Assembly: GCF_006345805.1 (NCBI RefSeq)
Contig: NC_043011.1
Span: 16,008,464 to 16,072,463, forward strand
Reading direction: 5' to 3'
From: Octopus sinensis
Taxonomy: Eukaryota
Length of the DNA stretch: 64,000 nucleotides
Shown one piece after another: positions 15,471 through 32,745 of the stretch. The notes below the pieces were generated by a model that saw nothing but the letters and a program-made list of their open reading frames with translations, did no database searches and was not told the origin of the DNA. Position 1 is the first letter of the stretch, and every line of letters starts with the position of its first letter. Made by a program: the position numbers and the translations under genes.

Positions 15471-15535
<65 letters not shown>

Positions 15536-15774
15536 CTTGTTAATTTCCCGATAATACCCGATAATTCTTGTTAAGATCCCTTATTAAGAGATTATCCTTA
15601 ATTGTTAAACTTATTCCGAAATGCTTTTCATTACCCGACATGCAGTTCGTAAAAAGCCCGCCATTTACCGGATATATGATTTATAAACATTCCATGTGCT
15701 TGGCCGGAGTGAGCAGTTGTCTGTTCGTCTTCGCTACGTAAGGTTGGTAGTTTATAAATGATGTGTTCAGAATC

Positions 15775-15832
15775 AGTTCTGCTGATGATCATAAGACGTA
15801 AGTTGAATGTGAAATCACGGTGATACAGAACT
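15775..15832 (+). ncRNA. Type I hammerhead ribozyme, array copy 1
   Basis: AGTTCTG-CTGATGA-TCATAAGACGTAAGTTGAATGT-GAAA-TCACGGTGA-TA-CAGAACT: 7-bp stem I, intact core, stem II with GTAA loop, stem III, AUA cleavage triplet (predicted cut after 15825). Confidence 0.85.
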
Positions 15833-16251
15833 AAATTCATTTTTTAAATGTCTTGCTTTGAAAAACTGCATTTGGGTATGATTAGTATAATTTTGGTAGT
15901 AATGACTTTGTCCCTCTTAGTGTGAGGCATTTATGTGTAATAATGCCCTCTAACAATATAGATATAATTAATTTGTTCAAAAGAAAAAAATTATTTTCGA
16001 ATTCTTTTCTTTTATGAGGTTTTCACGCTAACTACCCGAAAATTTCTTGTTAAGATCCCTTATTAAGAGATTATCCTTAATTGTTAAACTTATCCGAAAT
16101 ACTTTTCTTACCCGACATGCAGTTCGTAAAAAGCCCGCCATTTACCGGATATATGATTTATAAACATTCCATGTGCTTGGCCGGAGTGAGCAGTTGTCTG
16201 TTCGTCTTCGCTACGTAAGGTTGGTAGTTTATTTATGATGTGTTCAGAATC

Positions 16252-16309
16252 AGTTCTGCTGATGATCATAAGACGTAAGTTGAATGTGAAATCACGGTGA
16301 TACAGAACT
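16252..16309 (+). ncRNA. Type I hammerhead ribozyme, array copy 2
   Basis: Identical motif to copy 1. Confidence 0.85.
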
Positions 16310-16730
16310 AAATTCATTTTTTAAATGTCTTGCTTTGAAAAACTGCATTTGGGTATGATTAGTATAATTTTGGTAGTAATGACTTTGTCCCTCTTAGTGT
16401 GAGGCATTTATGTGTAATAATGCCCTCTATACAATATAGATATAATTAATTTGTTCAAAAGAAAAAAAATATTTTCGAATTCTTTTCTTTTATGAGGTTT
16501 TCACGCTAACTACCCGATAATTTCTTGTTAAGATCCCTTATTAAGAGATTATCCTTAATTGTTAAACTTATTCCGAAATACTTTTCATTACCCGACATGC
16601 AGTTCGTAAAAAGCCCGCCATTTACCGGATATATGATTTATAAACATTCCATGTGCTTGGCATAGTGAACAGTTGTCTGTTCGTCTTTGCTACGTAAGGT
16701 TGGTAGTTTATTTATGATGTGTTCAGAATC

Positions 16731-16788
16731 AGTTCTGCTGATGATCATAAGACGTAAGTTGAATGTGAAATCACGGTGATACAGAACT
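16731..16788 (+). ncRNA. Type I hammerhead ribozyme, array copy 3
   Basis: Identical motif to copy 1. Confidence 0.85.
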
Positions 16789-17210
16789 AAATTCATTTTT
16801 TAAATGTCTTGCTTTGAAAAACTGCATTTGGGTATGATTAGTATAATTTTGGTAGTAATGACTTTGTCCCTCTTAGTGTGAGGCATTTATGTGTAATAAT
16901 GCCCTCTATACAATATAGATATAATTAATTTGTTCAAAAGAAAAAAATTATTTTCGAATTCTTTTCTTTTATGAGGTTTTCACGCTAACTACCCGATAAT
17001 TTCTTGTTAAGATCCCTTATTAAGAGATTATCCTTAATTGTTAAACTTATTCCGAAATACTTTTCATTACCCGACATGCAGTTCGTAAAAAGCCCGCCAT
17101 TTACCGGATATATGATTTATAAACATACCATGTGCTTGGCCGGAGTGAGCAGTTGTCTGTTCGTCTTCGCTACGTAAGGTTGGTAGTTTATTTATGATGT
17201 GTTCAGAATC

Positions 17211-17268
17211 AGTTCTGCTGATGATCATAAGACGTAAGTTGAATGTGAAATCACGGTGATACAGAACT
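17211..17268 (+). ncRNA. Type I hammerhead ribozyme, array copy 4
   Basis: Identical motif to copy 1. Confidence 0.85.
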
Positions 17269-17688
17269 AATTCATTTTTTAAATGTCTTGCTTTGAAAAA
17301 CTGCATTTGGGTATGATTAGTATAATTTTGGTAGTAATGACTTTGTCCCTCTTAGTGTGAGGCATTTATGTGTAATAATGCCCTCTATACAATATAGATA
17401 TAATTATTTGTTCAAAAGAAAAAAATTATTTTCGAATTCTTTTCTTTTATGAGGTTTTCACGCTAACTACCCGATAATTTCTTGTTAAGATCCCTTATTA
17501 AGAGATTATCCTTAATTGTTAAACTTAATCCGAAATACTTTTCATTACCCGACATGCAATTCGTAAAAAGCCCGCCATTTACCGGATATATGATTTATAA
17601 ACATTCCATGTGCTTGGCCGGAGTGAGCAGTTGTCTGTTCGTCTTCGCTACGTAAGGTTGGTAGTTTATTTATGATGTGTTCAGAATC

Positions 17689-17746
17689 AGTTCTGCTGAT
17701 GATCATAAGACGTAAGTTGAATGTGAAATCACGGTGATACAGAACT
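17689..17746 (+). ncRNA. Type I hammerhead ribozyme, array copy 5
   Basis: Identical motif to copy 1. Confidence 0.85.
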
Positions 17747-18168
17747 AAATTCATTTTTTAAATGTCTTGCTTTGAAAAACTGCATTTGGGTATGATTAGT
17801 ATAATTTTGGTAGTAATGACTTTGTCCCTCTTAGTGTGAGGCATTTATGTGTAATAATGCCCTCTATACAATATAGATATAATTAATTTGTTCAAAAGAA
17901 AAAAATTATTTTCGAATTCTTTTCTTTTATGAGGTTTTCACGCTAACTACCCGATAATTTCTTGTTAAGATCCCTTATTAAGAGATTATCCTTAATTGTT
18001 AAACTTAATCCGAAATACTTTTCATTACCCGACATGCAGTTCGTAAAAAGCCCGCCATTTACCGGATATATGATTTATAAACATTCCATGTGCTTGGCCG
18101 GAGTGAGCAGTTGTCTGTTCGTCTTCGCTACGTAAGGTTGGTAGTTTATTTATGATGTGTTCAGAATC

Positions 18169-18226
18169 AGTTCTGCTGATGATCATAAGACGTAAGTTGA
18201 ATGTGAAATCACGGTGATACAGAACT
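18169..18226 (+). ncRNA. Type I hammerhead ribozyme, array copy 6
   Basis: Identical motif to copy 1. Confidence 0.85.
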
Positions 18227-18645
18227 AAATTCATTTTTTAAATGTCTTGCTTTGAAAAACTGCATTTGGGTATGATTAGTATAATTTTGGTAGTAATTAC
18301 TTTGTCCCTCTTAGTGTGAGGCATTTATGTGTAATAATGCCCTCTATACAATATAGATATAATTAATTTGTTCAAAAGAAAAAAATTATTTTCGAATTCT
18401 TTTCTTTTATGAGGTTTTCACGCTAACTACCCGATAATTTCTTGTTAAGATCCCTTATTAAGAGATTATCCTTAATTGTTAAACTTAATCCGAATACTTT
18501 TCATTACCCGACATGCAGTTCGTAAAAAGCCCGCCATTTACCGGATATATGATTTATAACATACCATGTGCTTGGCCGAGTGAGCAGTTGTCTGTTCGTC
18601 TTCGCTACGTAAGGTTGGTAGTTTATTTATGATGTGTTCAGAATC

Positions 18646-18703
18646 AGTTCTGCTGATGATCATAAGACGTAAGTTGAATGTGAAATCAGGGTGATACAGA
18701 ACT
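18646..18703 (+). ncRNA. Type I hammerhead ribozyme, array copy 7 (stem III variant TCAGGGTGA)
   Basis: Same motif with C>G in loop III. Confidence 0.8.
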
Positions 18704-19121
18704 AAATTCATTTTTTAAATGTCTTGCTTTGAAAAACTGCATTTGGGTATGATTAGTATAATTTTGGTAGTAATGACTTGTCCCTCTTAGTGTGAGGCAT
18801 TTATGTGTAATAATGCCCTCTATACAATATAGATATAATTAATTTGTTCAAAAGAAAAAAATTATTTTCGAATTCTTTTCTTTTATGAGGTTTTCACGCT
18901 AACTACCCGATAATTTCTTGTTAGATCCCTTATTAAGAGATTATCCTTAATTGTTAAACTTAATCCGAAATACTGTTCATTACCCGACATGCAGTTCGTA
19001 AAAAGCCCGCCATTTACCGGATATATGATTTATAACATTCCATGTGCTTGGCCGAGTGAGCAGTTGTCTGTTCGTCTTCGCTACGTAAGGTTGGTAGTTT
19101 ATTTATGATGTGTTCAGAATC

Positions 19122-19179
19122 AGTTCTGCTGATGATCATAAGACGTAAGTTGAATGTGAAATCACGGTGATACAGAACT
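19122..19179 (+). ncRNA. Type I hammerhead ribozyme, array copy 8
   Basis: Identical motif to copy 1. Confidence 0.85.
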
Positions 19180-19598
19180 AAATTCATTTTTTAATGTCTT
19201 GCTTTGAAAAACTGCATTTGGTATGATTAGTATAATTTTGGTAGTAATGACTTTGTCCCTCTTAGTGTGAGGCATTTATGTGTAATAATGCCCTCTATAC
19301 AATATAGATATAATTAATTTGTTCAAAAGAAAAAAATTATTTTCGAATTCTTTTCTTTTATGAGGTTTTCACGCTAACTACCCGATAATTTCTTGTTAAG
19401 ATCCCTTATTAAGAGATTATCCTTATTGTTAAACTTAATCCGAAATACTTTTCATTACCCGACATGCAGTTCGTAAAAAGCCCGCCATTTACCGGATATA
19501 TGATTTATAAACATACCATGTGCTTGGCCGGAGTGAGCAGTTGTCTGTTCGTCTTCGCTACGTAAGGTTGGTAGTTTATTTATGATGTGTTCAGAATC

Positions 19599-19656
19599 AG
19601 TTCTGCTGATGATCATAAGACGTAAGTTGAATGTGAAATCACGGTGATACAGAACT
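19599..19656 (+). ncRNA. Type I hammerhead ribozyme, array copy 9
   Basis: Identical motif to copy 1. Confidence 0.85.
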
Positions 19657-20072
19657 AAATTCATTTTTTAAATGTCTTGCTTTGAAAAACTGCATTTGGG
19701 TATGATTAGTATAATTTTGGTAGTAATGACTTTGTCCTCTTAGTGTGAGGCATTTATGTGTAATAATGCCCTCTATACAATATAGATATAATTAATTGTT
19801 CAAAAGAAAAAAATATTTTCGAATTCTTTTCTTTTATGAGGTTTTCACGCTAACTACCCGATAATTTCTTGTTAAGATCCCTTATTAAGAGATTATCCTT
19901 AATTGTTAAACTTAATCCGAAATACTGTTCATTACCGACATGCAGTTCGTAAAAAGCCGCCATTACCGGATATATGATTTATAAACATTCCATGTGCTTG
20001 GCCGGAGTGAGCAGTTGTCTGTTCGTCTTCGCTACGTAAGGTTGGTAGTTTATTTATGATGTGTTCAGAATC

Positions 20073-20129
20073 AGTTTGCTGATGATCATAAGACGTAAGT
20101 TGAATGTGAAATCAGGGTGATACAGAACT
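20073..20129 (+). ncRNA. Type I hammerhead ribozyme, array copy 10 (1-nt deletion in stem I, TCAGGGTGA variant)
   Basis: AGTTTG-CTGATGA...GAAA-TCAGGGTGA-TA-CAGAACT. Confidence 0.7.
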
Positions 20130-20395
20130 AAATTCATTTTTTAAATGTCTTGCTTTGAAAAACTGCATTTGGGTATGATTAGTATAATTTTGGTAGTAAT
20201 GACTTTGTCCCTCTTAGTGTGAGGCATTTATGTGTAATAATGCCCTCTATACAATATAGATATAATTAATTTGTTCAAAAGAAAAAAATTATTTTCGAAT
20301 TCTTTTCTTTTATGAGGTTTTCACGCTAACTACCCGATAATTTCTTGTTAAGATCCCTTATTAAGAGATTATCCTTAATTGTTAAACTTATATAT

Positions 20396-20453
<58 letters not shown>

Positions 20454-24962: not shown

Positions 24963-25329
24963 GTACATATATACAGACATACATACATATATATATATAC
25001 ATGCATACGTACATATTCGGCATAAACACTCTACCACTACAACTAATAACTGCTGGGAACGCTTTCAAACCTGCCTTACATTCGAACCGGAATCTCAAAA
25101 ACATTGTCTCCTTACATCTCATTCTCATTTAATTCCCAACACAGAGAAATAAAACTTCTTCTCACTACTGGACAATGGATGATGGTAACAGATATTTACC
25201 ACGTGCTACCTTATCAAGTGAAGTATATTGTCATCCACTTCACCTCTAAACTCCATAGCGTACGGACAATTCGAACGACCCCACAGCACTATACCACCAC
25301 TGATACTTTAATACTTCTAGCTGTCTACT

Positions 25330-25740
25330 TTCTTATAAATACGACAGAATTCATTTCCAGCCAAAAGGTCTTTCCTAACTTCACACAAAACTACCAAAAT
25401 CACAATTGGCTGTGTGAAAGAGTAATATTAGCTCCAAAAAACGTCGCTGTTAACAAAATTAATCAACAGCTAATGCATTCTCTTCCCGGCACTATACACA
25501 CTTACAAGTTTGTTGATACAATTCCAGATATAAATGAAGATGTGAACTATCCTCCTGAATTTCTCAATTCACTGGAGCCTCCTGGACTACCTCCACAAAT
25601 ATTAGCATTTAAAGTTGGAACTCCTGTAATGCTACTCCGCAGTCTGGAACCACCAAGACTTTGCAATGGAACACGACTGGCTATCAAGAAAATGATGTCA
25701 CACGTTATGGAGGCGATAATTTTTTCTGGATGTGGAAAAT
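25330..25740 (+). pseudogene. Helitron RepHel Pif1-family helicase fragment
   Basis: WLCERVILAPKNVAVNKIN...YPPEFLNSLEPPGLPP...KVGTPVMLLRSLEPPRLCNGTRL: Helitron/Pif1 helicase motifs; truncated by (TA)n. Confidence 0.92.
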
Positions 25741-25800
25741 ATATATCTATTTATAGATATATATATACATATATATATATATTTATAGATATATATATAT

Positions 25801-25831
<31 letters not shown>

Positions 25832-26059
25832 GATGTACTGGAAGTTAAACACACAGACACACACACAGACACACACACAGATACACACACAGACACATAA
25901 GTTGAGTTTTATAAATATAGATATTTCCACTGACATTGGTTTCGTTTTGCAAATAAACTAAGACAGAAAAAATTCGGACAGTTACGTTGTTCTGTAGCAT
26001 TCAAGGGAATTACCACATCATAAGATCCCCTAATGCAATGTTGTCTAAACCTATGTATA

Positions 26060-27831: not shown

Positions 27832-28739
27832 TTGACTTGGCAACTACATTGACGCACTTTTTTAAATTTTGGAATCTTTTATTTTCTCGAGAATTCTATT
27901 TTCAAATCATTTTAGAATCTTTTTTTGTATAGTTAATTTTACTTATTTTTTGTTTATTTTCAGATCCTTAAAAGGGAATGTCAAGTTAAGAAAAACGAGC
28001 ATTTTCAGACACCTTTCGCCTCAAGGTTCTAAGGCCATAAAAGCTGCTCGCGACATTTGTTTTGTGTATGGAGAGGGTGCCATAGCTGAAAGAACAACTC
28101 GTGATTAGTATGCCAAGTTCAAAACTGGAGATTTTGACCTCAAAGACGCATCACCCCCTGGCTGTCCAGTTGGGTTTGAAGAAGAGCGATTAAATCAGCT
28201 TTTGCACGAAAATTCTCGTCAAGAACTTCATCAACGATGTTGTGCGTATGGTGGGACTGGGAAGGGGTTGTCATTACGAACTACTTGAACGGAAGCAAAC
28301 GGTCAACGCGGAAGTCTATGTTCAACAGATGGATCGACTCAACTCGGCTAATCAAGATAAATCGGCAGCATATAGTTCAGCTGCACGACAACGCCCGCCC
28401 TCATATAGCCAATATGACCAAGGAAGCCATCCAAACGCTTGGCTGGGAAGCGCTACCACATCCGCCGTACTGTCTTGATTTGGCACCAACGGATTTCCAC
28501 CTCTTTCGATCTCTTTCAAATGCTATGCACGGAGTTTCGTTTAATATTGATACAGAATTGAAAGATTGTTTGGATCAAGTTTTTGAGTCGAAACCGAGGC
28601 ATTGAATATCTTGTTGAAAGTTGAGAAGAAGTTGTAAGCAATAAGGGTGAATGCATAATCGATTAATTAGTTATTTTTTATTTAAACTTTTAAAACATTT
28701 TAATTAAAGAAAGCGGCGGGAACTTAATTGCCAAGCCAA
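27832..28739 (+). mobile_element. Decayed, internally deleted mariner transposon (mellifera-like TIRs)
   Basis: TIRs TTGACTTGGCAACTA... / ...TAATTGCCAAGCCAA with TA flanks; N-terminal AARDICFVYGEGAIAERT; catalytic region MLCVWWDWEG, LHDNARPH, HPPYCLDLAPTDFHLFRSL; stops and frameshifts. Confidence 0.92.
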
Positions 28740-31331: not shown

Positions 31332-31499
31332 TATATATATATTATATATATATATAAAAAATTTATAAGTAAGGGAAAAGAATAATTTTCTAATGCCAAA
31401 ATATGCCGAAAATAGACATAACATCAATAACCATGTAATCAATCACTACAAGCAAGCGTTTCGAAGAAAACCGACAGAAATTTCTAAAAAATCCCGTTA

Positions 31500-31560
31500 T
31501 TACCATATCGGACCCGATTTCAGAGTTAGTTCATAAGAACCTTGTCTTCATCAGTGATAA
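31500..31560 (-). ncRNA. Type I hammerhead ribozyme in a TA-flanked island (about 31357-31690)
   Basis: Minus strand TTATCA-CTGATGA-AGACAAGGTTCTTATGAACTAACTCT-GAAA-TCGGGTCCGA-TA-TGGTAA: all three stems pair, intact core, AUA triplet. Confidence 0.8.
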
Positions 31561-32745
31561 ATGCTGCAAAGAAATAAGTGAAATACTTACTTATACCCAT
31601 GGAAGAAGTGAACACTAAGTCACGAGCACAATTAAGTACCCCAAATATATCCAATATAGAAACTCTCTAGCCCATCTCGAGACACATATATATAAAATTA
31701 AATTAAATTTTTTATCTTATATATATATATATTATTTTGCTCTTCTGAAAACATTAAGAATATTGGTAGTGATGCTGAGAGATATACCCGCTTTCATTTC
31801 AATTTCCATGCAAGTTAAATCCAATTGCGTCACTGAAGTCTTTGACAAGGTGTGAATATTAAAATAATATTACATCCGTCTTCTGTATCCCTTATATCGA
31901 TTTTTTGGGGGCGGGGAGATATGCGGTTTAAAATTAAGTTAAAATATCAATTATAAACTGGAACGAATTTTGAAGTAGTAGTGTTAATAGATCGATTTGA
32001 AATTATAGATTTTCGAGTTCATTAATTATAGATCCATTATGAAAATCTGGGAGACCAAAATGTTATGCAAACAAAATGGTTTCTGAAATGAAATGTGAAA
32101 TATTTAGAATGGTTAATACATTACACAAAATTGTACACTCTAATCCCTGTGCCTCTTATGTAGATTATATTATTCCAAAGTTACCAACAAAAGAATTCCT
32201 TGGCTATCCCTTCAGAATCTGCCCTAACTCAATCTATATTATCATCGAAAGTGGAAAGACACGTAGGATAATGTAATCCATGACGCAAGCAGGTGCGTTA
32301 TCAGTGGAAATTTTACACTCTTGCTAACTAGGGCTAAAATTATGCAATTTCAATAATATATAATGCTGGATTCTATGAAAGCTTTACATCAGGGCTTATA
32401 TCATATAAAACCTGAATGCAGCTGCTATTCGTGTTTGTCTCTTTTTCAATTTATAATTCGGATGTTGAGAAAGACTTTGCATCTTCCCATTTTATTTTGC
32501 CTTGATGTTGAATACCTACGTTCACACTTCAAACATTGAGCAAATATACGAAACCCCAAACACTTATCGGCATACAAAATTGGCTTAACTTTTTTTTATA
32601 TTTCTATCTCACTTTTAACTTTAATAAAAGGTGGAAACCATTTTACATTCTCCCTTTATATGGCAGCTGTAGCTTATTATTTTGTAACTGTTTTATTTCA
32701 TTCTTCGCAATTATATTTCGTCGAATGTACATACATACATACATA

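Follow-up and report, generated by a model that had tools for sequence, protein, structure and literature searches.

The window analysed here, a 64,000-nucleotide stretch of the Octopus sinensis genome (contig NC_043011.1, positions 16,008,464 to 16,072,463 of the forward strand), carries a head-to-tail array of about ten ~479-bp units, each with one type I hammerhead ribozyme motif, and this array is one insertion of a dispersed, young, non-coding multicopy family. It is probably a retrozyme without long terminal repeats (non-LTR retrozyme) for which a Penelope-like element (PLE), most plausibly one of the Neptune type, supplied the reverse transcriptase (RT) and GIY-YIG endonuclease that placed it in a (TA)n microsatellite. 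The anatomy of the insertions makes PLE-type retrotransposition very likely, and their haplotypes make a circular monomer template a rather likely one. More tentatively, a possible route is double rolling-circle retrotransposition, in which a PLE enzyme dimer would prime both nicked strands on one ribozyme-made circle, each at one of two sites 127 nt apart, and both subunits would travel round it. Non-LTR retrozymes and their link to PLEs have already been described, and what this family adds is the clean anatomy of its insertions; literature searches, for which most subscription papers were outside reach, returned no description of the window family or of inverted, TA-targeted retrozyme insertions.

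The array and its units

Tandem Repeats Finder (TRF) applied to the window returned a tandem array at 15544-20390 with a period of 479, 10.1 copies and 98% matches, in agreement with an initial annotation of this DNA that had described a ten-copy, ~480-bp array flanked by (TA)n. The array has a GC fraction of 0.33 and no LTR, and no open reading frame (ORF) of 100 amino acids or more lies within 15531..20389. Ten hammerhead motifs follow one another at a spacing of 473-480 bp, every predicted cut falling after AUA at the sites originally foreseen (after 15825, 16302 and onwards). Positions within the unit are counted from window 16782, the first base 3' of a predicted cut, as position 1. The monomer that such cuts would release, 16782..17261, has a minimum free energy of -134.7 kcal/mol (z -6.8), and 0 of 100 shuffles were as stable. 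On all the sequence-level features examined (tandem hammerheads, non-coding units, GC below 50%, no LTR, dispersed copies, self-paired monomer) the family looks like a retrozyme, which bears out the first reading of tandem non-coding units with a conserved hammerhead. The features of the insertion are as follows.

15531..20389, + strand: putative single-armed retrozyme insertion, 10.1 head-to-tail units of ~479 bp, non-coding (TRF, direct reading)
15472..15531, no strand: (TA)n on the left flank, belonging to the target microsatellite (TRF)
20389..20451, no strand: (TA)n on the right flank, belonging to the target microsatellite (TRF)
15531..15562, + strand: 5'-truncated junction made of short re-copied unit pieces (read directly)
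15775..15832, + strand: type I hammerhead, unit 1, predicted cut after 15825 (motif search)
16252..16309, + strand: type I hammerhead, unit 2, predicted cut after 16302 (motif search, Rfam scoring, folding)
16731..16788, + strand: type I hammerhead, unit 3, predicted cut after 16781 (motif search)
17211..17268, + strand: type I hammerhead, unit 4, predicted cut after 17261 (motif search)
17689..17746, + strand: type I hammerhead, unit 5, predicted cut after 17739 (motif search)
18169..18226, + strand: type I hammerhead, unit 6, predicted cut after 18219 (motif search)
18646..18703, + strand: type I hammerhead, unit 7, C>G in stem III, predicted cut after 18696 (motif search)
19122..19179, + strand: type I hammerhead, unit 8, predicted cut after 19172 (motif search)
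19599..19656, + strand: type I hammerhead, unit 9, predicted cut after 19649 (motif search)
20073..20129, + strand: type I hammerhead, unit 10, stem I one base short, C>G in stem III, predicted cut after 20122 (motif search)
16782..17261, + strand: predicted monomer, cut to cut, 480 nt, numbering reference (folding)
20218..20264, + strand: hairpin and 'short' end site S (unit position ~142) in the last unit, a presumed RT start in other arms (arm-end mapping)
20265..20391, + strand: ~127-bp tail from S to L with a long hairpin; the array ends at the 'long' site L (266-269), a second presumed RT start (arm-end mapping)

Most related families retain the GCCATTT-type motif found at window 17090-17108 (unit ~309-327); it resembles a YY1 site and could indicate an internal promoter.

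The ribozyme

The hammerhead core (CUGANGA / GAAA / UH, with three stems and an open stem I) is intact in 10/10 units, as claimed at the outset, with stem I weakened in unit 10. Stem I measures 7 bp and extends further in the way noted in the initial annotation, stem II is closed by a U.U mismatch and capped by a GNRA loop, and stem III, with 4 bp in the monomer, is a near-palindrome whose duplex with a second copy is predicted at -11.9 kcal/mol; such a palindromic stem III arrangement lets metazoan hammerheads act as dimers (PMC4209133). The criterion for the pair 10.1-11.1 is purine-pyrimidine; the window family has U.U there, its relatives G-C or A-U. The U.U at the base of helix II has a precedent in axolotl HHR_Amex2, which shares it and cleaves weakly alone and better as a dimer (PMC7229834).

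The ribozyme pattern, which fixed the core and stem III, matched 1,205 times in the assembly searched (G000, 2.72 Gb) against 0 times in the reversed control, and patterns for related stem III variants matched 690 (control 0), 104 (control 3) and 2,245 (control 0) times; the ribozyme motif exceeds chance. The Rfam model RF00163 (Hammerhead_1), in turn, reached only 12.6 bits (E 2.5), below its gathering score of 34, and an Rfam scan of 8 kb returned no match at E<=1. With a score so far under the gathering score, standard annotation would miss the hammerhead, as had been anticipated.

Stem I lay outside the search patterns, and its covariation could be assessed across 33 distinct variants: 167/198 cells are paired, whereas 10,000 shuffles, which ignore relatedness among variants, averaged 124.9 and never exceeded 144. 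Since stem I covaries, the hammerhead fold is being kept, and this argues for selection on the ribozyme. In the same direction, within the close family 0/12 core positions show an inherited variant, whereas the free position N7 takes three letters. Further hammerhead repeat families with the same stem III occur at L190, L192 and L232-L260, without detectable similarity to the unit.

A dispersed family with fixed ends

A search of the same assembly with the unit as DNA gave at least 237 matches in the 40 scored of 1,221 candidates, the best at 95-100% identity and spread over many contigs. The initial annotation had treated the array as a single locus; it belongs instead to a young family scattered through the genome, whose insertions have PLE-type ends. 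The 92 insertions mapped comprise two sets. Set A has 44 loci: the window, its 39 best DNA matches and 4 long arrays taken from a pattern list. Set B has 48, drawn from the lists of ribozyme pattern matches after L167, an inverted duplicate of L166, had been removed from 49. The loci L166 and L167 (G000:C23), flanks included, are inverted duplicates ~68 kb apart, either a segmental duplication or an assembly duplicate. Two arms stand back to back in inverted orientation at 61 of the 92 insertions, 24 are single-armed like the window copy, which in this respect is unlike the two-armed loci, and 7 are complex. Dozens of unlinked young loci carry arrays of 1-15 units that obey identical end rules.

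Runs of (TA)n lie on both sides in 77/92 insertions and are the insertion target. The 85 simple loci provide 148 arm 3' ends, of which 142 map to one of two sites, 74 to L (262-270) and 68 to S (133-153); the fixed sites lie 142 and 266-269 nt 3' of the predicted cut, an interval of ~127 bp, and both recur in families 72-87% identical to the unit. Each site follows a hairpin and is AU-rich, so that it could pair with a nicked TA run. Arm 5' ends are scattered across the unit, with 3/148 within 10 nt of the predicted cut. The 61 two-armed insertions comprise 55 L+S pairs and 6 with one unclassed end, with 0 LL and 0 SS, and the longer arm among the L+S pairs is L in 33 and S in 22. The features expected of a non-autonomous PLE, namely 5' truncation with an inverted copy (61/92), two fixed 3' ends and a microsatellite target, thus all appear at the level of sequence.

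Haplotypes, arm pairs and the template

The 36 arrays of about three or more units hold 22 haplotypes, and substitution divergence rises from 0.31% within insertions to 0.47% across arms and 1.84% between insertions; at 3 loci, private variants are fixed in both arms. When linear multimers are copied, arrays can only become shorter and a new mutation reaches one unit at a time. Every haplotype therefore calls for a step from monomer to multimer, and the data favour rolling-circle reverse transcription as the simplest such step. Rolling-circle reverse transcription is also the model proposed for retrozymes, with genome entry hypothesised (PMC7229834). Moreover, unit junctions are exact at the cut site in 270/282 cases, which fits a circle closed by ligation better than it fits jumping from one cut end to the next. 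Linear cut monomers as template are ruled out, as 5' ends do not cluster at the cut. At L046, one substitution alternates unit by unit across a six-unit arm, as a dimer circle would give; with this one case only, periodic variants are too few to serve as a sign of dimer circles.

Arm pairs carry information on how the second arm arises. Among the 55 L+S insertions, both arms exceed 2 units in 6, the arms are nested in 41, and in 9 neither arm contains the other by >15 nt, so that in these both arms were RNA-templated. Twin priming of the L1 kind on linear RNA was rejected: it predicts that L arms stop close to S, and this was seen in 1/55 against 2.4 expected.

Penelope-like elements in the same genome

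The assembly encodes open RT-GIY-YIG frames, 775-781 aa long and containing a cysteine linker, which we provisionally call Neptune-type on the basis of the linker described in 10.1101/2021.04.23.441226. Copies of PLEs in this genome also end in TA runs at two sites. One young PLE family (L103:5620-5680, L201-L230) has a canonical hammerhead core and, like the window family, U.U at the base of stem II; its ends in the 30 loci L201-L230 were scored as 13 long, 11 short and 8 tandem.

The search for a partner element combined a GIY-YIG scan, 14 long-frame PLE loci, 30 loci each of two PLE families and four ribozyme patterns. No match of a PLE pseudo-LTR (pLTR) to the unit was found in the PLE loci examined, 150 of 5,029 GIY-YIG candidates having been scored. 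At L127:700-1700 (G000:C1:63268107-63271156), the 3' untranslated region (UTR) of a decayed Neptune-type PLE is joined directly to a related unit with no TA between; as a partner PLE it was set aside, being a single chimera, with 29 other copies examined running on into their own 3' UTR, and it may represent a template switch or an insertion with deletion.

Two further observations concern PLEs of this genome. Neptune-type 3' UTRs at L041:7895-7940, L099:1440-1480 and L292-L320 carry hammerhead variants with U/A replacing C3/G8 and a 4-nt palindromic stem III. In addition, a young PLE family at L090:1674-5374 has a 479-aa upstream ORF, with no Pfam match, that overlaps a 781-aa RT-endonuclease frame.

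Relation to known systems

Metazoan non-LTR retrozymes of coral, mussel and axolotl (PMC7229834) resemble the window family in their tandem non-coding units with one type I hammerhead each, low GC, lack of LTR and highly self-paired monomer. The window unit of 480 nt is just above the 150-450 bp of that study and its stem III is longer (4 bp, near-palindromic), whereas inverted arms, two fixed ends and TA targeting characterize the window family and find no description in the available text of PMC7229834; expression has been demonstrated for those retrozymes, whereas the window family is known from sequence alone. The suggestion that the unit is longer than usual does not hold once a second range, 51-972 bp (10.64898/2026.07.22.740005), is set beside that of 150-450 bp (PMC7229834).

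That second study, covering vertebrates, three insects and one coral, regards retrozymes as non-autonomous PLE derivatives (10.64898/2026.07.22.740005), and its elements agree with the window family in the PLE link, in dispersal as monomers to multimers and in unit size. The basis of the PLE link differs, being co-occurrence and pLTR homology there and insertion anatomy, with no homologous pLTR found, in the window family; furthermore, local amplification is favoured there, whereas the data on the window family favour multimers made at insertion.

Among the features listed for PLEs are copies that are inverted and 5'-truncated, a tail of 30-40 bp at one end, and a bias towards microsatellites or (TA)n (10.1101/2021.04.23.441226). 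In work with purified Poseidon protein, both target strands were nicked and extended, and reverse transcription began at two internal RNA sites downstream of the hammerhead, the tail being the stretch between them (PMC11167929). The endonuclease-bearing Neptune and Poseidon elements thereby share with the window family 5' truncation, an inverted 5' copy, a tail between two RT starts, an AT-rich or (TA)n target and a palindromic helix III (10.1101/2021.04.23.441226; PMC11167929; PMC4209133). Unlike PLEs, the window family has no ORF, and its tail is ~127 bp rather than 30-40 (10.1101/2021.04.23.441226); in addition, its start sites are distributed one per arm (55 L+S), in contrast to Poseidon in vitro, where the start site did not differ between strands (PMC11167929).

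Proposed mechanism and alternatives

Under the preferred reading, plus-strand transcripts of tandem copies would be cut by their hammerheads into ~480-nt monomers, perhaps as dimers via the palindromic stem III, and a host ligase would close the monomers into circles. A PLE enzyme would then nick both strands of a TA run, cDNA synthesis would start from each target end at a different one of the two internal AU-rich sites, which lie 127 nt apart, and the reverse transcriptase would circle the RNA for a variable number of turns. Joining of the two cDNAs at their truncated ends would yield the inverted L+S structure, and an arm lost or never made would leave a single-armed array, as in the window.

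Several results weigh against this reading. The window array has four variants, each common to 2-4 units, which a single circle does not explain and which could come from conversion, a mixed template or assembly polishing, and a private fixed variant occurs in only 4/36 arrays. The count of core positions given above is biased, because about half of the loci were chosen by a pattern requiring an intact core. The window variant has a U.U pair in stem II, and its active fold lies 4.6 kcal/mol above an inactive one, the largest gap of the six compared (0.9-3.2 in five relatives), in a model that ignores core tertiary contacts. Furthermore, 8/9 Xenopus retrozymes tested did not cleave (10.64898/2026.07.22.740005), and hammerhead cleavage is dispensable for PLE insertion in vitro (PMC11167929). 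Junction phases are symmetric within 10 nt in 9/61 insertions (p 0.0013), and set B, the less biased of the two, holds fewer non-nested arm pairs than expected (6 vs 11.8, p 0.002; all loci, 9 vs 13.7, p 0.06). On the side of the partner, the two 3' ends of the young PLE family at L103 and L201-L230 are ~14 bp apart, a shorter tail than that of the unit, the end sites of a second PLE family, seen in one copy, are ~34 bp apart against ~127 bp, and no autonomous PLE sharing unit sequence appeared in the ~195 stretches screened (31, 104 and 60, with a few overlaps).

Some of these results could also be explained by a PLE insertion templated not by a circle but by long, uncut RNA read through from a master array, with the ribozyme cutting rarely or acting at another step. 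Arms of 14 units exist (L106), 5' ends form no pile-up at the cut (the 3/148 given above), the ribozyme variant is predicted to be weak, and unprocessed RNA is the dominant PLE substrate in vitro (PMC11167929); uncut transcripts of long master arrays combined with later homogenisation are a possible source of uniform arrays. We nevertheless regard this as unlikely, given that the 22 haplotypes are each fixed over whole arrays and both arms, that both arms exceed 2 units in 6/55 insertions, and that the covariation of stem I indicates a fold being kept.

Another alternative concerns the second arm: only one arm would be RNA-primed, the other would arise by fold-back of the first cDNA, and the fixed ends would be set by the endonuclease cutting element DNA. 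The symmetric junctions and the scarcity of non-nested pairs indicate that fold-back copying likely makes a share of second arms, and the 41/55 nested pairs and the haplotype common to both arms fit as well. Fold-back alone, however, cannot make the 9/55 insertions in which neither arm contains the other; the longer arm can be either (33 L vs 22 S), and the in vitro reaction extends both strands from sites within the RNA (PMC11167929). As an account of the whole structure it is rather unlikely.

Growth in place of a satellite, in which unequal crossover or slippage enlarges a short solo insertion, has been proposed (10.64898/2026.07.22.740005); it would homogenise units too and would suit the few variants common to neighbouring units (window, L051, L069). 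It is improbable here, as it would require a starting dimer and sits poorly with inverted arms that are both multimeric with common private variants, and with dozens of unlinked young loci of 1-15 units and identical end rules; local expansion may add units after insertion, leaving the family itself unexplained.

Public sequencing runs were also compared with the unit. Of the four runs, three are presumed to be RNA and one is of no stated type. A single contig in X1 (509 nt) and another in X3 (503 nt) cover the whole unit and wrap round it, as would equally be expected from a tandem DNA array, so that they are not counted as evidence of expression, and the contigs of the large run X15 on the unit are broken into 2,485 pieces. 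Over-expansion of a short element by long-read assembly is highly improbable: scattered one-base indels in later units do resemble long-read errors, yet the array is <5 kb with distinct flanks, and four public runs from four studies each have a contig bridging the head-to-tail junction, evidence that bears on the junction and not on copy number at the window locus. The preferred reading is PLE-mediated insertion, with a circular retrozyme RNA as its probable template.

Other features of the window

On the minus strand at window 31380-31700, a short element beside (TA)n carries another type I hammerhead-like motif, unrelated to that of the array and with its core at 31554; it probably belongs to another PLE-related family because a similar motif occurs in L090 near 1085. 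At 25050-25832 and 28180-28605 lie fragments of a Pif1-type helicase, presumably Helitron-like, and of a DDE transposase. A sigma-70 promoter scan gave nothing above shuffles, a bacterial signal irrelevant for an animal.

Implications

How PLEs make tandem and inverted insertions has been called undefined (10.1101/2021.04.23.441226). If true, double rolling-circle retrotransposition would explain the PLE tail and the inverted arm in one step, and would show how animal retrozyme circles enter genomes, giving back-to-back multimers of one haplotype. The family offers more than 1,000 young ribozyme copies, a short unit, two mapped ends and a strict rule of one site per arm. In a genome that holds open PLE frames, this puts both questions, how PLEs build such insertions and how retrozymes gain entry, within reach of direct tests that combine a candidate enzyme with a 480-nt RNA and a TA-repeat target.

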